A stretch of DNA of 64,000 nucleotides, from positions 44,572 to 108,571 of IMG/VR virus record IMGVR_UViG_3300031555_002573. One strand, 5' to 3'. Of this stretch, positions 1,697 through 54,732 are shown piece after piece; positions within the stretch are counted from its first letter, which is position 1; each line of letters begins with the position of its first letter. The stretch comes from a virus (Duplodnaviria > Heunggongvirae > Uroviricota > Caudoviricetes). The notes beneath the pieces are model-generated. The model had not been told where the DNA came from. It made no database searches and saw only the letters and a program-made list of their open reading frames with translations. The position numbers and the translations under genes were made by a program.

Positions 1697-3136
1697 ATGA
1701 TGGATTCACTATGGGGTGAGGACTTTAAGGTTGAAGAAACCCCAAAAGTAGCAAAAAAGATTGTAAATAAGATAAACAATCCTAAAGGTGTAAGTAAATC
1801 AAAAAGCTCTAAAAAGGTTGTTGTAGCATTGGATGAACAAATGGACCTTATTAGAGCCGAGGTACATAGGATACTAGGTAAGTACAAAGACAACACAATA
1901 GTAATCAAGACGAAAGAGCAATTAAAAGATTATATTGATAAGTCAATTAAAAATGGAATTATCGCCATTGATACTGAAACTAACAATAGTCTTGACCCCA
2001 TTACATGTAAGTTGATGGGTCCTTGTATCTACACTCCGGGTGAGAAGAATGCCTACATACCAATTAATCATATTAACCCAAATACAAGGGAAAGATTAAG
2101 CTGGCAATTGACAGAGCAAGATATCTACGAGGAATTTGATAGGCTTGTTGATACTCTTATTATAATGCACAATGGTAAGTTCGACTATCAAGTTATTAAG
2201 TGTACAACAGGTAATAAACTTAAGGTATATTGGGATACAATGATAGCTACTCGAATTCTTAATGAGAACGAAAAAAGAGCTGGCTTGAAAGAACAATATA
2301 TTGATAAAATAGACTCCTCTATTGAAAAATATGACATTGAGCATCTGTTTAAGGGATTAGAGTATGCAATCTTTGAACCTGAGTTGTTTGCTTTGTATGC
2401 CGCTACTGACGCTTATATGACTTATAAGTTGTATTTGTGGCAAAAGAAACAGTTTGATAAGGCAGAGCATAAAAAGTTGTTAAGATTGTTTCTTGATGTT
2501 GAAATGCCCATTATGGAAGTTGCAGCTGAAATGGAACTCACAGGCATTGAGATAGATAAGGAATATGCTCAAAGATTGAGTGATAAATATCATAGAATGC
2601 TTGACAATGTACAAGCAAAGATTGATGCTCAATTGGATGAATATAAAGATGTTATTGCACAGTGGAGACTTACTGATGAGGCAAATTTCCATACGAAGAG
2701 TGATAAACCAGATAAAAATGGTGAATATAAACTAAAAAAGTCCAAGAGTGAACAACTTAAAAGCCCTCCTGAACTTACAAGTCCGTCACAATTTGCTATA
2801 CTTCTTTACGATGTATTAAAGATTCCCCCAATAGACAAAGATAATCCAAGGGGTACCGGCGAGGATATCATAAAGAAAATAGACAACCCTTTATGTGCTC
2901 TTGTGTTGGAACAACGAGGAATCGATAAACTTATTGGTACATATATTGATAAGTTACCTGGGTGTGTAAATGAAAAAACAGGTAGACTTCATGCTCACTT
3001 TAATCAGATGGGAACTGAAACTGGACGATTTAGTTCGAGTGACCCAAACCTTCAAAATATTCCATCTCACGAAAAAGCGATTCGTATGATGTTTAAGGCG
3101 AGAGATGGGTATGTTATGGTCGGAAGTGACTTCAGT
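1697..3136 (+). CDS. polA: DNA polymerase I family, exon 1 (3'-5' exonuclease domain and N-terminal part of the polymerase domain)
   Basis: Exo I IIAIDTETNNSLDP, Exo II NGKFDYQV and Exo III YAATDAYMTYKLY are present, followed by RLHAHFNQMGTETGRFSSSDPNLQNIP. The ORF then runs into a stop right after DFSLQ, exactly where motif A DYSQIELR is expected. Confidence 0.8.
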
Positions 3137-11128: not shown

Positions 11129-11455
11129 ATGACAAAAATTGAAATTCTGAAAATGACGGACGACAAGTTGGACGAGGCCATTAAAATTCAAGGCACTAAG
11201 TATGACCGTAAGCGTAAGTTGAGTGATTCTATTCTTAAGAAAATCAAGAAATTGGCTAAGAACAATACATACTATGAAATTGCTAAAGAGTTGGGATTGA
11301 GCCCTAACATTGTTCGATATCATGCCGACCCCGTGTGGAAGGCTCACTTTAATGCTACAAGAGATGGTAAGCATTGTGGCAAAGATAAAATCACTGTTAA
11401 AAATCGTGTTGAGTACAAGAGAAGTCTGGTAGCCGCAGGTAAGATTGGCATTTAA
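11129..11455 (+). CDS. putative helix-turn-helix DNA-binding protein
   Basis: NNTYYEIAKELGLSPNIVRYHA is HTH-like. Confidence 0.45.
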   Translation: MTKIEILKMTDDKLDEAIKIQGTKYDRKRKLSDSILKKIKKLAKNNTYYEIAKELGLSPNIVRYHADPVWKAHFNATRDGKHCGKDKITVKNRVEYKRSLVAAGKIGI

Positions 11456-11523
11456 TTGACATTTATAAGGCTGGCAAGACCAACACATCTTGCCAGCCTA
11501 TCTTGGTTTTGGAGGACATTAGT

Positions 11524-12159
11524 ATGCTTACAAAAGAACAAATTTTATCTAATAGAGAAGAGTTTTTGACACTCATAAAGTCTATCAATAGAGAGGGTGC
11601 AGATATTGATAGACTTGTTAAAAAGTTGGAATGCTCTGATTTTTTTATTGCCCCATCATCTACCAAATATCATTGTAATTATGAGGGTGGATTGTGTGAG
11701 CACTCTTTAAATGTGTATAAAAATTTTGTCACCCTAGCAAATAGCAAGACAAATTTGGACGCTTGTTGCTATGATGAGAATACTGTTAAAATTATTACCT
11801 TGCTTCATGATATTAGTAAGATGAACATCTATGAGAAAACAGCTAAGAATGAAAAGGTATATTGTGAAGATGGGGATAAATATGATTCTCTAGGCAAGTT
11901 CAAGTGGGTGACCACTATGGGGTGGGGCCTAAAAGAGCAAAGGTTTACCTATGGTAGCCACGAAATGACCTCTGAATTCATTGCAAGACAATTTATACCT
12001 CTAACGATTGATGAGAGTGTTGCTATTTTGCATCATATGGGTGGCAGAAATTGGGATAGCGCCCAAGATAACATTACTGAAATTTTTGGACAATATCAAG
12101 TTGCTACCCTGCTTCATTTAGCAGATATGTTGGCATCCTATGTAGACGAGAGGGATTAA
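11524..12159 (+). CDS. HD-domain phosphohydrolase
   Basis: H...HD...H pattern: EHSLNV, LLHDISK, LHHMG. Start chosen at the ATG after the GGAGGA RBS. Confidence 0.5.
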   Translation: MLTKEQILSNREEFLTLIKSINREGADIDRLVKKLECSDFFIAPSSTKYHCNYEGGLCEHSLNVYKNFVTLANSKTNLDACCYDENTVKIITLLHDISKMNIYEKTAKNEKVYCEDGDKYDSLGKFKWVTTMGWGLKEQRFTYGSHEMTSEFIARQFIPLTIDESVAILHHMGGRNWDSAQDNITEIFGQYQVATLLHLADMLASYVDERD

Positions 12160-12160
12160 T

Positions 12161-12532
12161 ATGAATCCTTTGGTTAAGACACAATTGGATAAAATTAGGG
12201 GGGTAGACTTGCCCCCCTATGATGACAACACCTTGGTAATAAATATAGATAAAATGTCTTCGACTATGAATGAGTTGAGACAAGATGAATGTTATCTAAT
12301 ATCTGTTGAGGACTACATATTGAATCCCCCGGATGGGTTTACACTTCATACAAATTGGAACAATAATAAAATTCCTAAGCATAAAGTTATGAAGGTAGAT
12401 GTCTCAAAGGTTATGGGAAAGATGATTAAAGTGAATGCAATAGGATATGACTTGAAAAGCAATCGTGACATTCCAGAATCTTGGGAGGGTTGGTTGCCAG
12501 AGAAATCAATTAAAGTTATTGAGAGGTTATAA
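12161..12532 (+). CDS. hypothetical protein
   Basis: 123-aa ORF, tightly packed with its neighbours. Confidence 0.5.
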   Translation: MNPLVKTQLDKIRGVDLPPYDDNTLVINIDKMSSTMNELRQDECYLISVEDYILNPPDGFTLHTNWNNNKIPKHKVMKVDVSKVMGKMIKVNAIGYDLKSNRDIPESWEGWLPEKSIKVIERL

Positions 12533-12534
12533 AA

Positions 12535-13554
12535 GTGGCAGAAAGTTTAGCAGTTAAATATAGACCTAAAGATTGGTCAGAGGTGTGCGGACAAGGTTCT
12601 GTGATAAGAATTTTAGAGAGACAACTTCAACTTAATGAATTGAAAAATGTATACTTGTTTTCAGGTGCATCAGGTTGTGGCAAAACCACCCTTGCTCGTA
12701 TTTTTGCAAACAAAATAAATAATTACATAGGAACACCAAATGAGATAGATGCAGCTTCAAATAATGGTGTTGATAATGTTAAGGCAATTATTAAATCCGC
12801 ACAAGAAAGGTCTATTGATAGTAAATATAAGATATTCATAATAGATGAGTGTCATATGATTACTACTCAAGGTTGGAATGCCTTTCTTAAGTGTATTGAA
12901 GAACCTCCTGCATTTACTATTTTTATCTTTTGTACTACCGACCCTCAAAAGATACCTGCAACTATATTGAATCGTGTACAAAGATTTAATATTACTCGTA
13001 TCAATGTGGATAAGGTAAGGGATAGATTAAGATACATATGTCAACGAGAAGGATTTACTAACTATGAGGAATCCACTGACTACATTGCTAAAATTAGTGA
13101 TGGTGGAATGAGGGATGCTATATCCACATTGGAAAAATGTGCTGGATATTCCACTGATTTATCTATTAACAATGTGTTAGAATCACTTGGTAATTATTCT
13201 TATGACACCTTCTTCACCTTAATAAATGGTATTATTGATGGTAAAGAATGCGAAGTTTTAAAAGTTCTTGATGAGTTCTACAAGGCAGGCAATGATTTAA
13301 GACTATTTGTGGATATGTTCTTATCTTTTTGTCTTGATGTGTCTAAATATATAGTGTTCCAATCAACAGATATGATTAAGATTCCTTCAAGTATGGAGCC
13401 AACAATTAGAAACTCTACTAATTTTAAAGATTCACTCAATTACTATATGTATGTGGTGAATCAACTTCTTGACTTGAAGAATATGCTCAAAAATGATACT
13501 AGTATGAAGTCCACCATTGAGGTAATGTTCTTGAAAATGACGAGGATGCAATAA
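12535..13554 (+). CDS. clamp loader AAA+ ATPase (DnaX/gp44-like)
   Basis: Walker A GASGCGKTT; Walker B IFIIDECH; sensor LNRVQRF. Confidence 0.7.
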   Translation: MAESLAVKYRPKDWSEVCGQGSVIRILERQLQLNELKNVYLFSGASGCGKTTLARIFANKINNYIGTPNEIDAASNNGVDNVKAIIKSAQERSIDSKYKIFIIDECHMITTQGWNAFLKCIEEPPAFTIFIFCTTDPQKIPATILNRVQRFNITRINVDKVRDRLRYICQREGFTNYEESTDYIAKISDGGMRDAISTLEKCAGYSTDLSINNVLESLGNYSYDTFFTLINGIIDGKECEVLKVLDEFYKAGNDLRLFVDMFLSFCLDVSKYIVFQSTDMIKIPSSMEPTIRNSTNFKDSLNYYMYVVNQLLDLKNMLKNDTSMKSTIEVMFLKMTRMQ

Positions 13555-44147: not shown

Positions 44148-44630
44148 ATGAAATTTGAAAAAATAGGATATCTTCAATTTAAGGCAGATAAGCTTGATGC
44201 TCTTATTGATTATGAGAGCATCAAACTCCCGAAAAGAGCGACAAAATACTCTGCTGGTTATGATATTTATAGCATTAGTGATTTTACGCTACATCCGGGG
44301 GAAACAATTAAGTTGCCTACTGGACTTAAGATGGAAATTGATGAAGACAAATTTCTGTTAATTGCTCCTCGTAGTGGTCAAGGATTTAGTTACAAGGTAC
44401 AACTATACAATACTGTTGGTGTAATTGATTCAGATTATTATAATAATAAGAACAATGATGGTCACATTTGGGTAAAGTTGTACAATGATTCTCCTGAGGG
44501 TAAAGTGCTTGAAGTACATAAAGGGGATGCCATTTGCCAAGGAATTATTCTTCCCTATTATAAAGTAGAGGGTGACATTTCACATGAGGAGCGAGAAGGT
44601 GGATTTGGGTCTACTTCGAGTATGATTTGA
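44148..44630 (+). CDS. dut: dUTPase
   Basis: AGYDIYS, PRSGQG, GVIDSDY and REGGFGSTS motifs. Confidence 0.75.
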   Translation: MKFEKIGYLQFKADKLDALIDYESIKLPKRATKYSAGYDIYSISDFTLHPGETIKLPTGLKMEIDEDKFLLIAPRSGQGFSYKVQLYNTVGVIDSDYYNNKNNDGHIWVKLYNDSPEGKVLEVHKGDAICQGIILPYYKVEGDISHEEREGGFGSTSSMI

Positions 44631-45189: not shown

Positions 45190-45402
45190 ATGATGAGCAA
45201 GAAGTCTAAAAGAAATGTTCGACTTGGCTTGATTGTGATAAAAAATGTTCTTAAGTTTTTATACACAATTTCTGCCATAGCGTTGTTGTTATGGATTGGA
45301 TTTTCTATCATAGAAGTGTGGATTCAAAACTGGAATATGTCAAGTGAATCTCCCAATGTATATTCCTCTTTTAATGTGTTTGAAGTCCTGTTCAAAGTGT
45401 AA
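45190..45402 (+). CDS. small membrane protein
   Basis: AAAGGGGA RBS; hydrophobic core; immediately downstream of the promoter at 45126. Confidence 0.45.
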   Translation: MMSKKSKRNVRLGLIVIKNVLKFLYTISAIALLLWIGFSIIEVWIQNWNMSSESPNVYSSFNVFEVLFKV

Positions 45403-45900
45403 GTACATAACTATTAGTAAGATTTATCCGTAGTGAGTATAAAGCCATATCGAGTATGCTACAATGTACAAACTCAAGGAAACGGGAAAGACGATTAGTT
45501 TAAAGTAAGAACGCTGGGTAACAATCGCAGAGATTTCGGTGAGCCTAAGTCCGATATCGTCTGAACCAATAACCATCTGTACAATGGTTGAATTGAGAGT
45601 AGCAGAGTTTAGTGTTCATGGTGTAGAGGTAGCACGCTGGCCATAGAGGGTCGGAGGGTTGGGTTCGAATCCTGATGACACGACCGAAAAGAAAAACTCT
45701 TAAAAGTACAGAGATATGAAAAAGCAAGGTAACAGTATAGAACTTGGTCGGTATAATTAATGAGTGAAAATAATCTATGAAAGTGATTATTAGAAAAAGA
45801 CCGTTGGAAGTGGTTGCAAACACGAACCCAACCCTTGCTCCTAATGGTGAAAGTCCATTAGCGGACACAATTTAAAAATAAATTGTATAAAAATAAATAA

Positions 45901-45935
45901 ATTAGTTGATTTTTATACAAATATGTACTATAATA
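45901..45935 (+). promoter_or_regulatory. conserved extended promoter driving a transcript with no ORF
   Basis: attagTTGATTttt..acTATAAT. Confidence 0.55.
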
Positions 45936-46485
45936 TGTTTGTAAATTGGTTAGGGCCAAGCAGAAAGTAGACCCAAAGAGCTAATAGCTGTCGCCCCCAA
46001 TTTCATATATGCCATTCTAGTAACGGCAATTACTAGTGAGGATGTTGCCGAATCCAAAAGGTTATGCACTCACCACAAGTTAATAGTGCACAGACAGCTC
46101 GCCTGTTGAGGAGTGAAGAACAAGTTGAAGCCCGCATGAAACTTGTCACCAGAATCTGATGGTAAAGAGGAAGGTTAATCGCGGCGGGATATATTGTAGC
46201 GGTGCAAATCCGATATATTCTGGATGGATGCGCTGTGGAATAGACGAGTAGTTGGTTTTCCTAACGGTGAATACAAGCTTGTTTCCACCCAGAATGAATC
46301 CGCCAAGGCGGCGGGAAATTAAGGACAGCAGGAAAGCTCTCGCATTAGTATAGGTGACAATGGAATAACTTGTTCTAATGTAGAAGCCGTAAGTACTCAG
46401 TAATGAGATACGCGGGACTTTGTTGAGAGACAGAGCTTTGGGTAGCCAGTGGGAAAAGCTATCATTTATATATTATTTTATTAAA

Positions 46486-46520
46486 ATAGTTGACTTTTTG
46501 TAGAGTTTGATGTATACTAT
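46486..46520 (+). promoter_or_regulatory. conserved extended promoter (TTGACT, 18 nt, TATACT)
   Basis: aaatagTTGACTttt..tgTATACT. Confidence 0.5.
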
Positions 46521-46670
46521 ATACACAGTTAATATTCCTTTAACAACAGTGGGAAACGAGAACAAGCGGACTCGTGGATGTAGGATGGGTAGGTTTTCTA
46601 CATCAATAATTGTATATAATATTACTAGTGAAGATACAACAAATAGTTAGTGTGCTACTCATATCTATAT

Positions 46671-46757
46671 GCGGGATTGGTGGAATAGGCAGACACAAGG
46701 GACTTAAAATCCCTCGGTGGTGACATCGTATCGGTTCAAGTCCGATATCCCGCACCA
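46671..46757 (+). tRNA. tRNA-Leu(TAA), CCA encoded
   Basis: GCGGGAT/ATCCCGC acceptor; anticodon arm AGGGA-CTTAAAA-TCCCT; long variable arm; T arm ATCGG-TTCAAGT-CCGAT. Confidence 0.8.
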
Positions 46758-46820
46758 ATGTCGAAGTTTGCTAGAGTTCGTCGCGACTTTAACCCTAAAC
46801 TAGCTCTTCCTTTCGTAAAT

Positions 46821-46897
46821 GCAAGAGTAGTTCAACGGGTAGAATATAGTAGCCTTACAAGCACTATCTATTGGTTCGAATCCAATCTCTTGCACCA
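46821..46897 (+). ncRNA. tRNA-like gene with an aberrant anticodon region (possibly a degenerate tRNA-Val(TAC))
   Basis: Perfect acceptor GCAAGAG/CTCTTGC, D arm and T arm ATTGG-TTCGAAT-CCAAT, CCA encoded. Positions 27-43 do not form a 5-bp stem; an ATAGT/ACTAT stem encloses the 12-nt loop AGCCTTACAAGC. Confidence 0.4.
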
Positions 46898-46919
46898 TAC
46901 ATACTGTTTATTATAATAT

Positions 46920-46994
46920 GGCCCGGTGGTCAAGCGGTTAAGACACCGCCCTTTCACGGCGGTAACACGAGTTCGATTCTCGTCCGGGTCACCA
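46920..46994 (+). tRNA. tRNA-Glu(TTC), CCA encoded
   Basis: GGCCCGGTGGTCAAGCGGTTAAGACACCGCCCTTTCACGGCGG...; near-identical to the Bacillus tRNA-Glu. Confidence 0.85.
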
Positions 46995-47524
46995 TAACAA
47001 TGTAGATGCTAATATAGGCGGCGCGAAAAGGGTATAATGAAAAGTTATGCTAGTGGACATGTCGTTACCACCGAGAAGCGGGAACTGCTCCTATGGCTGT
47101 AGGTTCCTTACATTGTTTAGGCACAATAAGGTGTAATGAGCCTGTTGAAGTTGAAATGATATATACTTCTTCGGTACTGATACTTATCATGTGTTGTGTT
47201 TGAGGTTATTCCTACTACCTGTACCATAAACAGGGGAAGAGTTAGAGTGTAGGAACAGAATATGTAGCGTATATACATAAGGTCGCTAATAGATGATAAG
47301 ATTGTACTAACAACAATCTAATGCGCGATGAGTATCAGATATTAGTGGGCTGTATAAACTATAATAACTGAATAGTATGATACGAGGCGGCTGGCCCAGT
47401 AGGGTACATTGAACTAAATCGTAGTGTTAGTTCCTGTTGATAGGATGCGGTGAGGCGATGGCAGACCAACTTAAACTTTTGAAGTGTCTTGGCCATTAGT
47501 AGTTGATTACGACTAAAGTTATTG

Positions 47525-47598
47525 TAGTAGATATGCGGGATTGGTGTAATGGTAGCACAACAGCCTTCCAAGCTGTTGGTGCCAGTTCAAATCTGGTA
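47525..47598 (+). tRNA. tRNA-Gly(TCC), CCA encoded
   Basis: Anticodon arm ACAGC-CTTCCAA-GCTGT; discriminator U. Confidence 0.8.
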
Positions 47599-47632
47599 TC
47601 TCGCTCCAAGTAATTAAAAAATATTTTTTATA

Positions 47633-47665
47633 ATAGTTGACTTTTTGTAAAAAATATTGTATAAT
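47633..47665 (+). promoter_or_regulatory. conserved extended promoter
   Basis: taatagTTGACTttt..tgTATAAT; upstream of the Met-Gln-Ile-Val tRNA group. Confidence 0.6.
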
Positions 47666-47690
47666 ATATAGTGTTCTAAATAATAGATAA

Positions 47691-47767
47691 GGGCCTTTAG
47701 CTCAGTTGGTTAGAGCCCCCGGCTCATAACCGGTCGGTCGTAGGTTCGAGTCCTACAAGGCCCACCA
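47691..47767 (+). tRNA. tRNA-Met(CAT), elongator type (or Ile2), CCA encoded
   Basis: GGGCCTT/AAGGCCC acceptor (G1-C72); loop CTCATAA. Confidence 0.8.
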
Positions 47768-47773
47768 ACAACA

Positions 47774-47849
47774 TTGAGGTGTAGTCCAACGGTTAGGACA
47801 ATGGACTTTGACTCCATTGATGTAAGTTCGATTCTTGCCACCTCAGCCA
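47774..47849 (+). tRNA. tRNA-Gln(TTG), CCA encoded
   Basis: U1-A72 acceptor TGAGGTG/CACCTCA; anticodon arm ATGGA-CTTTGAC-TCCAT. Confidence 0.8.
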
Positions 47850-47983
47850 ACCCACAGTATAGTTGTGTTTAGAATTATTAATTAGAAGCATATCTGATGG
47901 GAAGGATATGCGGAAGGGTACAAAGAAGACTATACCGGATTTGTAAATTAAGTGTCGTTGCTTACCCCTCAACGAATGTACAT

Positions 47984-48059
47984 GCACCACTAACTCAATG
48001 GTTAGAGTACCTGGCTTATATCCAGTTAGTTCGGGGTTCGAATCCCTGGTGGTGTACCA
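47984..48059 (+). tRNA. tRNA-Ile(TAT), CCA encoded
   Basis: Anticodon loop CTTATAT on a CTGG/CCAG stem; T arm CGGGG-TTCGAAT-CCCTG. Confidence 0.65.
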
Positions 48060-48130
48060 ATACGGAAGCTGAAGATTATGGGTTCAGTAGTGTAGGAGTT
48101 TCGGAAGGTTGACTTCTACAGCGTACATAT

Positions 48131-48207
48131 GCGGGATTAGCTCAGCTGGTTAGAGCACCTGCCTTACAAGCAGGGGGTCATTGGTTCGAGTCCAATATCC
48201 CGCACCA
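48131..48207 (+). tRNA. tRNA-Val(TAC), CCA encoded
   Basis: GCGGGAT...CCTGC-CTTACAA-GCAGG...ATTGG-TTCGAGT-CCAAT. Confidence 0.85.
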
Positions 48208-48470
48208 GTTAAATTAGAATAACTGTAATTGAGGGATGGAAAAGTCTAATAGGGTTGAGGTCTTACAGTGTTGTAAGTGAGTCAGCTTGGAGACTCAAGA
48301 GGATGTGGAGAGGTCAGCGTCTAAGTGACACAAGATTAGCTTATGAACGCGTGGTAAATCTTATTGGATGGGGCACTAGATAGGATGTGCTAAGGAGTAG
48401 GAGTAATACCTATGCCTACTGTGTAAATTATAGTTATCTAGTTTAATTTTTAAAGACAATATATTCATAT

Positions 48471-48553
48471 GCCGATGTGGTGGAATGGCAGACACGCCTG
48501 TCTTAGGAGCAGGTACGAAAGTGTGAAGGTTCGAGTCCTTTCATCGGCACCAA
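48471..48553 (+). tRNA. tRNA-Leu(TAG), CCA encoded
   Basis: Loop CTTAGGA; long variable arm; acceptor GCCGATG/CATCGGC. Confidence 0.8.
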
Positions 48554-49268
48554 TCGGGAATCCCGGGTACTTATTAGTTCATACCGGTAAGTAAGCAATG
48601 TCCCGACCCCAAGAGGTCAAGCCCCTCTGTACAAGGCTATGCGGCACTGTCCGAAACCAAGCAGCGTTTGTAAGTATACTCGTTAAAACTTTCCGCGATT
48701 CAGTTTGTTTGTAGTTGTTACCGCGTTCCAGTGTAAGAGGAATAGATAAAGACTTCAACTGCTCGGATTTGTTTACTCCGATGAAGCATCATAAGGAATC
48801 CAATGATGGTAAACAAAATAAGGTGCCACGAAGCTTTATCAATTTTGATAAGGATTGTTACCCAAAGTACAAGGGAGTGCAGAAGCAGTGGTAAATGGAG
48901 CGGAATGAACAGCCTTATTTTTGAATAATGTGCCGCATTCACCTCAACAATTCGTCGAAAGATGTTGGTGTTACGAAACGGCTAAGTGGAATTTGAGAGA
49001 CAGCATTATTCTGTGGTATCAAGATATCTTGACTAAGTGAGTAACATTCAGTTACGATGCCACAATAGACTTGCCATAGGTCGAGATACCTTCGAGGCTT
49101 GGAGCAACGAAGTAAAATAAAGTCCCCAAGATGTTACTAGGTCAGAACAACTAGTCGCCGCAAGGTAGAGCACAAGTGTTAGAGGTCGATAGGGTATATG
49201 GCACGAGCCCGATTAGGTAATGACAAGGCGTGTAAATGTGCAGAATCGCGAAAAACCTCCGCTTATAT

Positions 49269-49348
49269 CTAGGTGTTGGGGAGTTTGGTCACCCCGCCAG
49301 TTTTGGGAACTGGAGAACTCGTGAGTTCGAATCTCACCACCTAGACCA
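49269..49348 (+). tRNA. tRNA-Pro(TGG), CCA encoded
   Basis: C1-G72 acceptor CTAGGTG/CACCTAG; anticodon arm CCAGT-TTTGGGA-ACTGG. Confidence 0.75.
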
Positions 49349-49614
49349 GCCGGAAGAGATGGTCCTTCATCACCCTCACTTCACAAGGTAGCTCTTGTAT
49401 AAAGAAGAATGATGAACACATTTTTGGTTTGATGTAAGACTTTCTATGAGGTTAAGAAAGAAAGGAAACTCATGTTGCAACAGGGTTGGTAAACCTCTCT
49501 AACGGGAGAAAGCTTCCAATATATGTGCAGATTGATATCGGATTATATCGGGGAGGAGTCATTACCTCTTGGGGACGCCCTTGGCAGGTTCAAGTCCTGC
49601 ACTGTACACTATAT

Positions 49615-49691
49615 GCAGATGTAATTCAGTTGGTTAGAATGCTCGTCTGATACGCGAGTCGTCAATGGTTCAAATCCATTCATCTGCACCA
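49615..49691 (+). tRNA. tRNA-Ile(GAT), CCA encoded
   Basis: Anticodon arm CTCGT-CTGATAC-GCGAG; T arm AATGG-TTCAAAT-CCATT. Confidence 0.8.
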
Positions 49692-49745
49692 TTTAGATGT
49701 AATTTCGTTGAAAGTACTATATATTATTTTTAACGAAATGAGTAT

Positions 49746-49819
49746 GCGGGTATAGTTTAATGGTAAAACCCCTGCCTTCCAAGCAGATGATGACAGTTCG
49801 ATTCTGTTTACTCGCTCCA
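49746..49819 (+). tRNA. tRNA-Gly(TCC), second copy, CCA encoded
   Basis: Loop CTTCCAA; acceptor GCGGGTA/TACTCGC. Confidence 0.75.
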
Positions 49820-49994
49820 ATAAGTGAATAGCGACTTAGTTAACTGTTGCAACAGTTACAAACTGCTTGTGGGATGCGAAACCCCTGAAGTATAACTCAC
49901 TACAATACATGGAGGAAAAAGCCATCAATGGACTTCTGCAAGATGTAAAATACAGGAGGTAAAGGTTGTTATTAGTGAGATGACAATCATATAT

Positions 49995-50079
49995 GGATGA
50001 GTTGCATAGTGGCAATTGCAGCGGACTGTAAATCCGCCGTCTCACGACTACGCTGGTTCGAGTCCAGCCTCATCCACCA
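49995..50079 (+). tRNA. tRNA-Tyr(GTA), CCA encoded
   Basis: Anticodon arm GCGGA-CTGTAAA-TCCGC; long variable arm; T arm GCTGG-TTCGAGT-CCAGC. Confidence 0.85.
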
Positions 50080-50420
50080 GAGGGAAGTTGACTTTGAGTA
50101 TTTCAAACACACCTACTAATAGTGGTAGTAAATACTATACATGGGTTGATTTGCACGGGGCAAATAAGTAGTATAATAAGTACAGAAGTAAAAACTGCGG
50201 AAGAAACCGCCAAGCGGGTCCGAACCGGTGTAGGATGGACGAGTCTCTCTGGAAAGTTATATGAAAAAAGAGCGGTTCGAGTCCGTTATAACCCACCACT
50301 GGTAGAAATGTTAGCAAAAGAAGTCACTACCTCAAACGATTGTATCAACTTAATAAGTGTAGATTATTCGGTATCAAATTGACGGATGTGCGGTTAGCCG
50401 ACCTTAAGGTGTTATATACG

Positions 50421-50520
50421 GATAAGTAAACTGAAATGGGTACAGTAGGGTAATTGCCTGTACGGTTCGATTCCGTCTTGGTCTTGGCAGATATGCTGGT
50501 TCGAGTCCAGTCTTATCCAT
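50421..50520 (+). ncRNA. tRNA-like element (about 100 nt) with a perfect acceptor stem, D arm and two T-arm-like hairpins, no canonical anticodon arm, no encoded CCA
   Basis: GGATAAG...CTTATCC acceptor; D arm ACTG/CAGT; hairpins ACGG-TTCGATT-CCGT and GCTGG-TTCGAGT-CCAGT. Confidence 0.35.
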
Positions 50521-50603
50521 CAAATAAGCCCTGTCCGTGGTAAAAGTCGGTAAAGAGGTGTAATCCCACCAGGCAATTAAATAAGTGAGTTAAAAGATTA
50601 TTT

Positions 50604-50679
50604 GGGGGAGTAGCCTAACGGCTAGGCACACGACTTTTAATCGTGACCACGTAGGGTTCGACTCCCACCTCCCCCACCA
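50604..50679 (+). tRNA. tRNA-Lys(TTT), CCA encoded
   Basis: GGGGGAG/CTCCCCC acceptor; anticodon arm CACGA-CTTTTAA-TCGTG; weak T stem. Confidence 0.75.
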
Positions 50680-50825
50680 GGCGCTGATAGGTAGCAAATA
50701 ATAGCAGCGACAGTGGGCACTACAAAGTGTGTTAACAAACTAATATGTGTGGTAACCGAGTACCTTAAGCGGTGTTAAATATGGAGACATGGGTTAGAGG
50801 ATTAAATCACCTCTCTCCATATATG

Positions 50826-50908
50826 GCTATGTAACTCAATCGGTAGAGTTTTTCGGTACCACTTAACAAAGAGTTGTTAGTTGCAAGTTCGAGTCTTGCC
50901 ATAGCCAA
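50826..50908 (+). ncRNA. tRNA-like element lacking an anticodon arm
   Basis: Acceptor GGCTATG/CATAGCC, D arm ACTC-AATCGGTA-GAGT and T arm GCAAG-TTCGAGT-CTTGC are canonical. The 33 nt between them contain only a TAACAA-AGAG-TTGTTA hairpin. No CCA. Confidence 0.4.
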
Positions 50909-50922
50909 ATATTTTTTATTTA

Positions 50923-50956
50923 ATAGTTGATTTTCAAATTATTTTATTGTATAATG
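50923..50956 (+). promoter_or_regulatory. conserved extended promoter
   Basis: taatagTTGATTttc..tgTATAAT; upstream of tRNA-Arg. Confidence 0.55.
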
Positions 50957-51007
50957 AATATGTCAAGTGAGTTTGAACACATCACTATGCTACCAATATT
51001 AATATAT

Positions 51008-51085
51008 GCGCCCTTAGCTCAGCAGGAACAGAGCATCTGCCTTCTAAGCAGAGGGTCGGGGGTTCGAGTCCCTCAGGGCGTGCCA
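51008..51085 (+). tRNA. tRNA-Arg(TCT), CCA encoded
   Basis: Anticodon arm TCTGC-CTTCTAA-GCAGA. Confidence 0.8.
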
Positions 51086-51291
51086 TTTGCAGGTAGCTCC
51101 TGCTGATTTGAGAGGACAGTATTGCCCTCAATAAGAATGACAATGACATACTACAATATGTTTTAGTGACATAATCAGCTGTAACGATGTGCTACTGTCG
51201 TGTACGAGTATTAGAACAAACGGCACAATGACGGTATGATAGGATAGGCTCCTTGATGGGATGTATTGTATTGTGTAAGTATACTTGATAT

Positions 51292-51384
51292 GGAGGAGTA
51301 CCCAAGTAGGTGAAGGGGCGAGTTTGCTAAACTTGTAGGTCGGAGTAATTCGGCGCGGGAGTTCGAGCCTCCCCTCCTCCGCCA
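51292..51384 (+). tRNA. tRNA-Ser(GCT), CCA encoded
   Basis: 3-bp D stem; loop TTGCTAA; long variable arm; T arm GGGAG-TTCGAGC-CTCCC. Confidence 0.8.
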
Positions 51385-51563
51385 GCTGTCGTACATGGAC
51401 GTCGCGACATTAAATGCAGATAAGCACACAAGAAGGTTGATGTCCCGTTTCAATTGATTTGGGAGTTAAAATCAAAGGTTCTTAGCTATTCCAGAAACTA
51501 AGCGTAAGTGAGAATGAAAGTGCACGCATTGTGTAACATGTAGTACGAGAAGCTACCTTATAC

Positions 51564-51652
51564 GGAGGAGTAGCGAAGTGGTCATAACGCGGCGGTCTTG
51601 AAAACCGTTTGTCCGAAAGGACACGTGGGTTCGAATCCCACCTCCTCCGCCA
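51564..51652 (+). tRNA. tRNA-Ser(TGA), CCA encoded
   Basis: Loop CTTGAAA; variable-arm hairpin GTCCGAAAGGAC; T arm GTGGG-TTCGAAT-CCCAC. Confidence 0.8.
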
Positions 51653-51671
51653 CAAGTAAACACAGATAGAG

Positions 51672-52490
51672 GTGATTTCTATGTATAGAGGATGTATCCC
51701 ATCTAAGGTTGATATCAGAGATTATAAAATTACATATTCTGCTTCTGATGTTCTACCTGCTAAGTTCAGATTAACAAAACTTCCCAAAGTAAAAGACCAG
51801 AAGTGTGTTAATTCTTGTGTAGCTCACGCTACAAGTACTATTTTAGAATACTTTGATTATCAAGATGGAAAAGGTCATGAACTATCCACAAACTTTCTTT
51901 ATGGTGGACAAAAAAAGTTGTGTGGTTACGAGGGACAAGGAATGTATCTTAGGGATGCGTGTGAAATTGCGAAAGATTATGGTGACCCGATAGAATCCTT
52001 GTGTAAGGGAAATGATGAGGTTCCTGATTCTTGGGCAGTAGCAGAAGAAGCACTTGATAATCAAGAGGCGTTGGACAACGCTAAATTTTTCAAAATAAAA
52101 TCTTATTATAGATGTGATAACATAGGTGCCATCAAGAAAGCCGTTCATAAATATGGTCCTGTTCTTGTTTGTATAAAATGGTATAATGATTTTTCAGTTG
52201 ATAGTACAGGAGTAATTCACAGTACACAAACAGGAGACTACGGATATCATGCCGTGATTATTTATGGATGGAATGACAAAGGATTTTACATTCAAAACTC
52301 TTGGGGTAGAAACTGGGGAAAGAATGGCAGAGCAATTCTTCCATATGAAATTCCAGTTGAAGAGGGAAGAGTATTGATTGATGATTCTATTGACATTGAT
52401 AAAAAAGATGTTGTTGTTCCAAAAAGAAACTCTTTGTTAGACATCTTTTGCAAAATTGCCAACTGGATTATTAATTTATTTAAAAAATAA
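51672..52490 (+). CDS. papain-like C1 family cysteine peptidase
   Basis: QKCVNSCVAHAT (Gln/Cys), GYHAVIIYGW (His) and NSWGRNWGKNG (Asn-Ser-Trp-Gly) in canonical order; GGAGGTG RBS. Confidence 0.55.
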   Translation: MISMYRGCIPSKVDIRDYKITYSASDVLPAKFRLTKLPKVKDQKCVNSCVAHATSTILEYFDYQDGKGHELSTNFLYGGQKKLCGYEGQGMYLRDACEIAKDYGDPIESLCKGNDEVPDSWAVAEEALDNQEALDNAKFFKIKSYYRCDNIGAIKKAVHKYGPVLVCIKWYNDFSVDSTGVIHSTQTGDYGYHAVIIYGWNDKGFYIQNSWGRNWGKNGRAILPYEIPVEEGRVLIDDSIDIDKKDVVVPKRNSLLDIFCKIANWIINLFKK

Positions 52491-52498
52491 TTTTTATA

Positions 52499-52532
52499 AT
52501 AGTTGATTTTTTAGTTTTTTTATTGTATAATA
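52499..52532 (+). promoter_or_regulatory. conserved extended promoter
   Basis: taatagTTGATTttt..tgTATAAT; upstream of tRNA-Thr and tRNA-Ala. Confidence 0.55.
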
Positions 52533-52608
52533 ATATATGGTGCTTAAAGGTAAGATAAGACATATGTGCTTATGAAGCGTTTTGACCATAACTCGAAACG
52601 AATCACAT

Positions 52609-52684
52609 GCTGGATTAGCTCAGTTGGTAGAGCAACGCACTTGTAATGCGTAGGTCGTCAGTTCGAGTCTGACATCCAGCTCCA
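52609..52684 (+). tRNA. tRNA-Thr(TGT), CCA encoded
   Basis: Anticodon arm ACGCA-CTTGTAA-TGCGT. Confidence 0.85.
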
Positions 52685-52687
52685 TAT

Positions 52688-52763
52688 GGGCCCGTAACTC
52701 AGCTGGGAGAGTGCCACCCTTGCAAGGTGGAAGTCGTGAGTTCGAATCTCATCGGGTCCACCA
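52688..52763 (+). tRNA. tRNA-Ala(TGC), CCA encoded
   Basis: Anticodon arm CCACC-CTTGCAA-GGTGG. Confidence 0.85.
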
Positions 52764-53548
52764 TGTTGTACCTTGAAAGATGAATACATACTAACTCAGT
52801 GCTAAACAACGAATACGCTTTCGTTGCTGAGAAAGGTTGAATGTGCTGGGAACACACGAAGACGGATACGTTGGATAGTTCGCCGGACTCTAATTCGTGA
52901 GGGTTAGAGGTAAGAGGTTGATAGCCCAAACACAAGACCTTGTACTAGAGTTATTCCCAAATAAGGGCAGAATGTGTATCGTGGGAACAATAGAAAGATT
53001 GAGTGAACAGCTCTTTCCGAATCCAAGTTAGGGTTTAGCCGGTGACTGTATCAAACCTTGGAAATACCAACAATCCCATTGGTCGTGAAGCATAGAAATA
53101 TGTGTATAAGATATGCATGTCATCTCCAAGTAGCCGAAGACCTTGACAAACTGATAAATTATCTACTTGAGATAGTAAATAATTTTCTGAACAGACGGTG
53201 AAAGGTACAGGTAACCAGACCTGTGGTAGCTCGTGTGGAAAGCGGCGGATATCTAATCCGTGCGGCTAACTCCTCGTGGCAAGAAGTTAGAGGTCGCTCC
53301 TCGAAGCTCAGACTTGTCATCTACATAGCTTAATATATTTGAGAATAATTGTAGCAACCCGAAGGGGTAGTAGATGTATTTGTCTTTCAGGGTACAATTT
53401 ACAATACATAGACCTGTTGGTTATGCTTACTATAAGAGTAGTTCAGCTCATTACTTGATGAAATTATAAGTAAGAAACACAGTAGATGCTAGCTCTATTT
53501 TCTTCGGAAGCAGGTCATTGGCCAGGGGATGCGTCCTTTGGCTTATAT

Positions 53549-53622
53549 CGCAGTGGTGGAGCAATGGTAGCTCATCGGGCTCATAATCCGAAGACGAGGT
53601 TCGAATCCTACGACTGCACCCA
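53549..53622 (+). tRNA. initiator-like tRNA-Met(CAT) with irregular acceptor and T stems, CCA encoded
   Basis: TGGAGCAATGGTAGCTCATCGGGCTCATAATCCGA closely matches the Bacillus tRNA-fMet core. C1 x A72 mismatch; only 3 bp in the T stem. Confidence 0.5.
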
Positions 53623-53771
53623 GCTTTTTAGGTTTATACACATTGTTTACAGTTAAGCATATCAAACTACAAACAAGTGGGTGTATTTACTAGTTTTCTA
53701 CCATAAGATGTAAACTAGTCGGTGGTTATGAAGTACCTGTGGAATACCGTCATAGAAAAACTTCATTATAT

Positions 53772-53859
53772 ATCCGAATGGTGTAAGGTAGCATATCACA
53801 GAGTGCTCTAAAAGAGACGAGATTGTGAGGATGAGGTTCGAGTCCTCTTTCGGGTACCA
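53772..53859 (+). ncRNA. tRNA-like element with acceptor, D and T arms and CCA but no anticodon arm
   Basis: ATCCGAA/TTCGGGT acceptor; D arm TGGTGTAAGGTAGCAT; T arm TGAGG-TTCGAGT-CCTCT; ACCA 3' end. No 5-bp stem plus 7-nt loop anywhere in the 37-nt central region. Confidence 0.35.
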
Positions 53860-54097
53860 AACTTCTTTGGTATAGTATAATGCGTCTTATCTATGCAATC
53901 CAAGGCTATGATAAGCGACCTATAACAGAAGACAAATTGATGCATCAATCGTTTCACCAAGGTGTGAGCGTGTCAACATTCCAAGAGTAAGAACTTTGGT
54001 TGAGGAATGAGAAGTTTATTTATATAAAGAATGAACAGTTAGCAACGCTTGAGGTAACCTTATAAAAACTCAGCCCTGCTACCATATGGCTCCATAG

Positions 54098-54174
54098 TAC
54101 AGTTGGTCAGTACGCTAGCCTGTCACGCTAGAGGTCGCGGGTTCGAACCCCGCTGGAGTCGCCAATCTTCCATA
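54098..54174 (+). tRNA. tRNA-Asp(GTC), CCA encoded
   Basis: Anticodon arm CTAGC-CTGTCAC-GCTAG; discriminator G. Confidence 0.85.
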
Positions 54175-54199
54175 ACTAATTTCTATAATTTTCTATTTA

Positions 54200-54233
54200 A
54201 TAGTTGAAATAATTTACAATATGTAGTATAATA
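54200..54233 (+). promoter_or_regulatory. conserved extended promoter (TTGAAA -35)
   Basis: taatagTTGAAAtaa..gtagTATAAT. Confidence 0.5.
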
Positions 54234-54262
54234 AATACGAAGTAAAAACAAGGAGAGTACTT

Positions 54263-54571
54263 ATGGAAACTACAAATCATTGGAATAGTAGAAATGATAG
54301 ACTCGCGTTCATTCAGAAAGAAATTGGAATTGGTAAGCCTGTTAAAACATTTAAGTGGGACAAGGGGCATCCTAATGGTCCAGAGCTACATACTATAACT
54401 GATACTGGAATTATTATCATTAGAAATGCTCTAACCAATAAACTTGTAACTACTTTAATTGCAAGGCCCGGACAAATAAAAAGATACTATGACAAACTAA
54501 AGACTGAAGTTCCGGAATTCATAATGAAACTTGCTTATGAACACGAGCAAAAAGGTTATAATTACATATAA
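54263..54571 (+). CDS. hypothetical protein
   Basis: AAGGAGAG RBS; downstream of the promoter at 54204. Confidence 0.5.
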   Translation: METTNHWNSRNDRLAFIQKEIGIGKPVKTFKWDKGHPNGPELHTITDTGIIIIRNALTNKLVTTLIARPGQIKRYYDKLKTEVPEFIMKLAYEHEQKGYNYI

Positions 54572-54584
54572 AATTATTATTAAA

Positions 54585-54618
54585 ATAGTTGACAAACAAC
54601 TCTATTAAGAGTATAATA
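54585..54618 (+). promoter_or_regulatory. conserved extended promoter (TTGACA, 17 nt, TATAAT)
   Basis: aaatagTTGACAaac..gagTATAAT; upstream of tRNA-Asn. Confidence 0.6.
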
Positions 54619-54655
54619 AATAGCATAGTAAACAAACTGCTATGCTATTAGATAT

Positions 54656-54732
54656 TCCCCTGTAGCTCAGCTGGTGGTAGCATCTGACTGTTAATCAGAG
54701 GGTCGCTGGTTCAAGTCCGGCCGGGGGAGCCA
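54656..54732 (+). tRNA. tRNA-Asn(GTT), CCA encoded
   Basis: Anticodon arm TCTGA-CTGTTAA-TCAGA; preceded by a 10-bp leader hairpin. Confidence 0.8.

Follow-up and report, generated by a model that had tools for sequence, protein, structure and literature searches.

The window analysed here, a 64,000-nucleotide (nt) stretch of a Caudoviricetes virus genome (one strand, positions 44,572 to 108,571 of IMG/VR record IMGVR_UViG_3300031555_002573), appears to contain a novel structured RNA gene at 45941-46466 on the + strand, at the head of a cluster of transfer RNA (tRNA) genes. We assign a probability of roughly 0.6 to the joint claim that this element is a genuine RNA gene, that it is novel and that it acts in trans, and the first part of that claim taken alone, namely that we are dealing with a genuine structured RNA gene, seems very probable from the alignments described below. 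The element is made up of two domains and lies between two predicted promoters of the same family:

45941-46466, + strand: putative structured RNA as a whole, about 525-530 nt, domain A plus domain B
about 45947-46175, + strand: domain A, an accessory 5' domain of about 230 nt that is present in 4 of 9 lineages
46199-46463, + strand: domain B, about 265 nt, the conserved 3' core, found in all nine lineages
45906-45934, + strand: predicted sigma-70-type promoter of the RNA gene, with -35 TTGATT (45906-45911), a 17-nt spacer and -10 TATAAT (45929-45934)
46490-46518, + strand: next predicted promoter of the same family, TTGACT-17-TATACT, which marks the 3' limit of the element and drives a tRNA-Leu/Cys/Glu unit

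The evidence is comparative. Homologues were found in eight further phage lineages from metagenomes, giving nine with the window, and all of these carry domain B (besides the window L027, L028/L029, L030/L031, L032/L064, L033, L034, L067 and L068, with nhmmer E-values of 1e-13 to 1e-90), while domain A is found besides the window in L034, L067 and L068 only, the full-length homologues being located at 1600-2165 in L034, 1945-2545 in L067 and 860-1455 in L068. When RNAalifold was applied to an alignment of eight domain B sequences (A4) it returned 53 pairs, and 96.2% of the alignment cells at these positions are paired as compared to 34-42% when the partners are slid. Compensatory double changes are seen in 27 of the 53 pairs against 2-8 in the slid controls, the covariation score is 0.398 where the controls give about 0.05, and none of 500 shuffles reaches the observed values. 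A rerun with nine sequences gave the same main helices, one of which, B-P4, has up to four pair types per position. Domain A, for which the structure derives from an alignment of four sequences (A7), likewise has 52 pairs with 96.6% of cells paired, and 26 of these 52 show compensatory changes against 1-4 in slid controls. Furthermore, both domains contain G-U or U-G pairs that are invariant (columns 62/136 of alignment A8, in 9/9 sequences, and columns 161/191 of A7, in 4/4), and since these would be C-A on the opposite strand, the RNA strand must be the + strand. A first-pass annotation made from the sequence alone had put forward a large structured noncoding RNA in a phage tRNA island at this site, a proposal that is supported by strand-specific covariation in both halves of the element, and the alignment with relatives that it called for indeed reveals conservation and covariation and no conserved small open reading frame (ORF).

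The relatives were gathered from ENA/Logan contigs by way of dUTPase homologues, two-part DNA patterns and homologues of a papain-like protease encoded in the tRNA arrays. A covariance model of 147 positions, covering the 3' part of domain B, scores 133 bits in the window and 118-160 bits over the nine lineages; elsewhere in the 389 kb of related loci no score exceeds 17 bits, so that no more divergent copies were detected there. The nearest IMG/VR phages, whose dUTPase is 69% identical (relatives L001-L013, found through this protein), are without the element, and L014-L019 are exact copies that add no variation. In bacterial and archaeal genomes (one per species) one pattern had no match, while the 24 matches of an 18-mer all proved to be chance when examined with nhmmer; a domain A pattern had no match in IMG/VR, and a protease-based scan of the same database returned only contigs that were already known. 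No paralogue of the element was found inside the window. The distribution seen so far is narrow, and this limits its interest.

The first-pass annotation had described the stretch as promoter-led, free of ORFs, richer in G+C than its surroundings and ending at the next promoter, and these features all hold. The upstream promoter matches 10 of 12 consensus positions, the G+C content is 0.431 (45936-46489) or 0.456 (45950-46460), while the window as a whole has 0.356 and the flanking AT-rich spacers have about 0.27-0.33 (the ROOL RNA of the same window has 0.42), and the longest start-to-stop ORFs reach 33 amino acids (aa; + strand) and 43 aa (- strand), with no + strand ORF of at least 60 aa anywhere in 45403-47358. 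All three stop codons are spread over every + strand frame, and a recoded genetic code was rejected, since reassigning one stop codon opens none of them. On the - strand the window element has a 108-codon stop-free run without a start codon or a Pfam match, and the four full-length copies have such runs of 105-132 codons, all without start codons. The frame is cut to 38-47 codons in homologues that consist of domain B only, the frames are interrupted in L030, L032 and L033, indels are not multiples of three and no Pfam family is matched, findings on which a hidden - strand ORF was rejected; the runs reflect the purine-rich nature of the + strand. It is hardly credible that the stretch has no function at all and is what remains of a decaying gene or tRNA cluster, or else a region of spurious or antisense ORFs that looks conserved through recent common ancestry alone. 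The stop-free runs and the close relationship among some of the homologues could be taken in this sense, but double substitutions have preserved 96% of the pairs between sequences with 30-40% divergence, the - strand frames are broken up in the manner just described, and the element has moved intact between three genomic contexts.

Domain B is predicted to fold into the following parts:

46199-46213, + strand: B-P1, a T-arm-like hairpin with stem CGG/CCG, a closing G-C pair and the 7-nt loop U-N-N-A-A-N-U (UGCAAAU in the window)
46219-46293, + strand: B-P2, long-range, pairing 46219-46228 with 46284-46293 and 46243-46247 with 46279-46283
46300-46311, + strand: B-P3, hairpin CCGC-CAAG-GCGG, 86.7% paired
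46318-46332, + strand: invariant unpaired strand AUUAAGGACAGYAGG
46333-46439, + strand: B-P4, long-range helix of 46333-46340 with 46432-46439
46342-46346 with 46377-46381, + strand: B-P5, inside B-P4
46387-46390 with 46412-46415, + strand: B-P6, inside B-P4
46396-46407, + strand: GUAA-capped hairpin, inside B-P4
46421-46430, + strand: conserved strand UGNUGAGAGA, inside B-P4
46441-46463, + strand: B-P7, terminal hairpin with conserved loop CAGUGGGAAAR, 7 pairs, 98% paired, 2 compensatory

The stem of B-P1 is invariant, as are U1, A4 and A5 of its loop in the nine sequences, and from this sequence pattern we take the loop to be a T-loop. B-P2 (helices 2 and 3) comprises 15 pairs, 8 of them compensatory, and encloses the near-invariant strand GGAUGCGCUGUGGAAUAG (46226-46243) along with a variable distal stem; in L033 the latter carries an insertion (about 2960-3000, - strand) with a T-arm-like sequence of its own, TAAGGTTCGAACCCTTA. 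The site of B-P3 holds an inserted stem of 30-40 nt in three lineages. B-P4 has 8 pairs that are 100% paired and 7 of which are compensatory. Between the helices domain B displays four near-invariant, purine-rich unpaired strands, GGAUGCRCUGUGGAAUAG, AUUAAGGACAGYAGG, UGNUGAGAGA and CAGUGGGAAAR, and the second of these served as a search pattern by which homologues were recovered. Of two hairpins quoted in the first-pass annotation, ccgccaaggcgg corresponds to B-P3, whereas gtgcaaatccgatatattctggatggatgcgctgtgg spans the T-loop-like B-P1 and the 5' strand of B-P2; both are real and fall within conserved helices.

The helices of domain A that align among the full-length copies are:

46017-46036, + strand: A-H3, stem CUAGUAA/UUACUAG with loop CGGCAA (46024-46029), 7 pairs, 100% paired, 4 compensatory
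46040-46055, + strand: A-H4, stem GGAU/AUCC, with UUGCCG (46045-46050) in its loop
46061-46095, + strand: A-H5, 9 pairs, 100% paired, 4 compensatory
46097-46114, + strand: A-H6, 5 pairs, 100% paired, 1 compensatory
46120-46146, + strand: A-H7, 5 pairs, 100% paired, 4 compensatory
46148-46175, + strand: A-H8, 3 pairs, 100% paired, 1 compensatory

The loops of A-H3 and A-H4 are complementary and could form a six-base-pair loop-loop pairing, be it a kissing or an alternative one. It reads CGGCAA/UUGCCG in the window, L034 and L067 and CUGCAU/AUGCAG in L068, and is 100% paired with 2 compensatory pairs. An intramolecular kissing helix of six base pairs looks strained with just 3 nt between the hairpins (a matter of geometric reasoning, not of computation), so that the two loops may instead pair between molecules or in an alternative fold.

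A number of points weigh against the reading as a whole. Folding of the single sequence is no better than chance, with minimum free energy z-scores of -1.28 (+ strand) and -1.69 (- strand) as compared to -2.87 for the ROOL RNA of the same window, and since this thermodynamic signal is not significant, the case for structure rests on the comparative data. The comparative set is small, with nine domain B sequences, several of them close relatives, and four domain A sequences, and the contrast with the controls is inflated because RNAalifold derived the helices from the very alignments in which covariation was then counted. B-P3 displays no covariation and is weakly supported; some 70 nt of the window element (45941-46009) are unalignable with the other three full-length copies, so that any helices there are tentative; and the covariation of the loop-loop pairing stems from one divergent lineage only (L068), and the pairing could equally well represent an alternative hairpin in competition with A-H3 and A-H4. 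The promoter is furthermore a consensus pattern match, the ends of the RNA are deduced, with transcription probably starting at about 45941-45943, and the analogy with ROOL and GOLLD RNAs, to which we return below, extends to location, size and architecture only.

The surroundings of the element are of importance for deciding how it may act. In all copies it is found on the tRNA strand inside islands of tRNA genes and ROOL RNA, but its neighbours fall into three contexts. In the window a second structured RNA, here called 'up', is followed by the promoter, domains A and B, the next promoter and tRNA-Leu; in L034, L067 and L068 domains A and B lie between tRNA-Ser(UGA) and the papain-like protease gene, beyond which tRNA-Thr, tRNA-Ala and ROOL follow in L034; and in L027, L028, L030, L032 and L033 domain B stands alone, at most about 10 nt from the 5' end of the 'up' RNA, and in L028/L029 comes right after a tRNA 3' half that ends in CCA (L028 11190-11265). 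The fold is kept while the neighbours change, which argues for a gene in its own right rather than a leader, and the occurrence in three contexts, always on the tRNA strand, likewise favours a stand-alone RNA that would act in trans as a folded molecule. A cis-acting leader or riboswitch of the downstream unit, i.e. of the tRNA-Leu operon in the window and of the protease gene in L034, L067 and L068, is in our view very improbable. It is true that in the three latter lineages the protease gene begins about 120-150 nt after the end of the element, with a ribosome-binding site following the element, and that no terminator separates it from the next unit in the window. The downstream neighbour is however variable, being a promoter with tRNA-Leu, the protease gene or the 'up' RNA, the protease gene of the window is 5 kb away (51672-52490) with the separate promoter at 46490 in between, and at about 530 nt the element has neither an expression platform nor a terminator/antiterminator alternative.

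No + strand terminator-like element was found for the RNA gene, the terminal hairpin being followed by AU-rich sequence, and several of the contexts are without a promoter, which points to release by RNA processing. As a trans-acting RNA the element would be co-transcribed with tRNAs or next to them, and the copies that have no promoter or terminator of their own would probably be trimmed out by host nucleases for tRNA or RNA processing. It may be asked whether the RNA could instead process itself. In that case domain B would be the catalytic core of a large ribozyme, acting in self-excision from a polycistronic transcript of tRNAs and noncoding RNAs or on tRNA precursors, and domain A a peripheral stabiliser. 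Near-invariant unpaired strands between covarying long-range helices are typical of catalytic or ligand-binding cores, and domain B, often lacking promoter and terminator and lying flush against neighbouring RNAs, does need processing, but the host RNases P, Z and E can account for this, no Rfam ribozyme is matched (including RNase P, group I and II introns, hammerhead, twister and HDV), and the conserved strands come in an order at odds with the RNase P P4 core. We regard a ribozyme, which the first-pass annotation had named as an alternative, as improbable.

The element represents a new RNA family, with no detectable relation to curated families, although its general kind, that of large ornate phage RNAs in tRNA islands, is known. 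In Rfam 15 (4227 models) no family, curated riboswitch classes included, matches the element, whether the whole window is searched at the gathering threshold or 45400-46700 at E <=10, and among the loci bearing homologues there was no match to it at the gathering threshold in the relatives or at E <=5 in four loci. The cmscan comparison suggested in the first-pass annotation, directed at GOLLD, ROOL, RNase P, transfer-messenger RNA and introns, hence came out negative at E <=10; neither tRNA, transfer-messenger RNA, RNase P RNA nor group I or II introns are found on the element by cmscan at that level or by ARAGORN, which calls nothing in 45936-46489. Searches of GenBank phages with blastn in distant mode (the element) and megablast (16 kb) gave tRNA matches only, and no description of such an RNA was found in the literature. 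Readings as a hammerhead, suggested by a UGAUGAG motif, and as an RNase P-like core were dropped, since no model matches and the strand order does not fit. A CsrA sponge, which the GGA-rich strands might form, was considered as well.

Closest in kind is ROOL (RF03087), which like the element is 500-600 nt long, multi-helical and promoter-proximal, lies on the tRNA strand and occurs in the tRNA islands of phages from rumen and gut metagenomes. Its helices and conserved strands are different, however, the element having a modular two-domain build with an optional 5' domain, and no ROOL match is found in 45400-46700 even at E <=10 (gathering threshold 99.1 bits). GOLLD (RF01998) shares the niche of the element and, like it, is linked to tRNAs or tRNA-like elements, and the plan of a conserved 3' domain with an optional 5' domain in phage tRNA arrays is that of GOLLD as well. 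This is an architectural resemblance rather than homology, as GOLLD exceeds 800 nt against about 530 nt for the element, has unrelated motifs and is not matched by the window and relatives at the gathering threshold, by the locus at E <=10 or by the four homologue loci at E <=5. HEARO, the omega RNA of IscB, is also a structured RNA of a few hundred nt in mobile DNA, and HNH genes do occur in these tRNA arrays, but they belong to homing-endonuclease families and are absent beside the window copy, there is no IscB or HNH ORF consistently adjacent to the element or adjoining the window copy, and Rfam gives no match. The first-pass suggestion of a GOLLD-, ROOL- or HEARO-like RNA thus stands with regard to kind and genomic setting and fails with regard to family membership.

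ROOL and GOLLD assemble into RNA-only cages by way of kissing loops and A-minor contacts (PMC12286853), and the covarying loop-loop pairing of the element is reminiscent of the ROOL bridges (PMC12286853). Our best guess, a tentative one that falls somewhat short of even odds, is by this analogy a ROOL/GOLLD-like architectural RNA that is possibly oligomeric. The T-loop, the GNRA tetraloop, the purine-rich conserved strands and the loop-loop pairing would then make up a particle of compact tertiary structure, possibly homo-oligomeric, which might serve a tRNA-related purpose during infection. A bolder proposal, which we consider doubtful, is that the element represents a third independent class of ornate phage RNA forming an RNA-only multimer through an intermolecular A-H3/A-H4 bridge, or else that domain B is a new large ribozyme acting on tRNA-island transcripts; if either were true, tRNA islands would be operons of unrelated large RNAs (the element, the 'up' RNA and ROOL) that work together.

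The 'up' RNA deserves mention in its own right. It is a unit of about 450 nt at 45427-45877 on the + strand, directly upstream of the element, is without an Rfam family and is kept in at least 12 lineages of the phage group, including the nearest IMG/VR phages that lack the element, and RNAalifold finds 80 pairs in it, 24 of which are compensatory. A terminal UCCG/CGGA helix closes the unit, which also contains a tRNA-like cloverleaf (45612-45682) that covaries, scores 27.3 bits with the Rfam tRNA model against a threshold of 29 and is called 'tRNA-Stop (tta)' by ARAGORN in the L026 copy. This cloverleaf recalls GOLLD, which can embed a tRNA (PMC12990946).

The tRNA-like features in and around the element also allow for a different view, in which it is a protein-binding scaffold or decoy whose tRNA-like surfaces bind or sequester a tRNA-directed enzyme. 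Possible targets are host anticodon nucleases and other defences aimed at tRNAs, RNase P or Z, modification enzymes, complexes of the Ro/PNPase type and the phage RNA ligase, the gene of which is conserved a few kb upstream. Such a role seems unlikely to us, albeit a serious contender. In its favour, the B-P1 loop resembles that of a tRNA T-arm in its conserved U1, A4 and A5 and in its closing G-C pair, a tRNA 3' half directly precedes domain B in L028/L029, domain B abuts the 'up' RNA with its cloverleaf in five lineages, and L030 has a sub-threshold match to YrlA (39 bits, E 1.4e-5) ahead of domain B, at 1755-1874. YrlA and other bacterial Y RNAs (RF02553) do share a T-arm-like hairpin with the element, which itself adjoins tRNA-like modules, but the element is five times larger and without a terminal Ro-binding stem, no YrlA match is found on it at E <=10, the one in L030 being the sole match and on another module, and no Ro60 gene was identified nearby in a partial ORF scan, in which none of the ten window ORFs scanned had a TROVE domain. 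It should also be mentioned that no gene for a partner protein is consistently adjacent, that T-loops serve as tertiary modules in a wide range of RNAs and are in themselves no indication of mimicry, and that long-range helices and invariant unpaired strands exceed the needs of a simple decoy.

To our knowledge there are very few bacterial or phage RNA classes that are longer than 400 nt and intricately folded, and nearly all large classes that have been studied turned out to be a ribozyme, the core of a ribonucleoprotein or, more recently, an RNA-only nanocage. As a structured trans-acting RNA the element would add a new class to the genomic niche of ROOL and GOLLD. Its modular build furthermore provides experimental handles, in that the core occurs alone, the 5' domain is optional and the core is frequently fused to a second novel RNA with a tRNA-like fold, and the 'gaps' in the tRNA arrays of this abundant gut and rumen phage group would be a mosaic of exchangeable RNA genes instead of spacers, which bears on the purpose of tRNA islands.

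The source phage is large and uncultured, the longest contig with its dUTPase being 142 kb, and identical copies of the locus are present in several JGI and ENA metagenome contigs. Its genes include an anaerobic ribonucleotide reductase, the dUTPase and the RNA ligase, the latter at most 32% identical to that of any cultured phage. According to ARAGORN the tRNA array of the window holds 23 tRNAs at 46671-54732, and the element lies immediately 5' of the first of these, tRNA-Leu at 46671. Both flanking promoters belong to a family, AATAGTTGAyTTTT..TATAAT (families D2 and D6), of which there are nine copies on the + strand between 45107 and 55843, and these split the island into many short transcription units. 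The ROOL RNA of the window (52771-53389, + strand, 288.9 bits) is found 3' of tRNA-Thr and tRNA-Ala, about 6 kb downstream of the element; ROOL is also present in L024, L027 and L034, and thus co-occurs with the element in the window, L027 and L034. The papain-family cysteine protease gene (51672-52490, + strand; Pfam Peptidase_C1, E 5.6e-15) lies inside the array, its position is conserved across the phage group and it has more than 400 metagenome homologues.

Several other parts of the arrays are unusual as well. Sequences resembling a T-arm plus acceptor 3' end (GGTTCGA..CCA) at 49581-49611, 50268-50298, 50492-50522 and 53832-53859 are called by neither ARAGORN nor Rfam and may be odd, split or degenerate tRNAs or tRNA-like modules. 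Stretches without ORFs or tRNAs at 49087-49257, 49349-49551, 50080-50297 and 53575-53771 are conserved in 3-5 related loci by blastn and may constitute additional RNA modules. In L036 a gene for a DUF2828/DUF7788 protein is located inside the tRNA array (11422-12981), a family that may be related to vWA/TROVE (Ro-like) proteins. ARAGORN furthermore assigns unusual anticodons to tRNA-Cys (ACA) at 46821-46897, tRNA-Gly (ACC) at 50824-50908 and tRNA-Ile (UAU) at 47984, the identities of which are doubtful, a syntenic gene in L003 being called tRNA-Ala. Finally, tRNA genes of 130-150 nt with long insertions, possibly introns, are seen at 3330-3478 in L030, 14702-14834 in L024 and 2417-2553 in L021.

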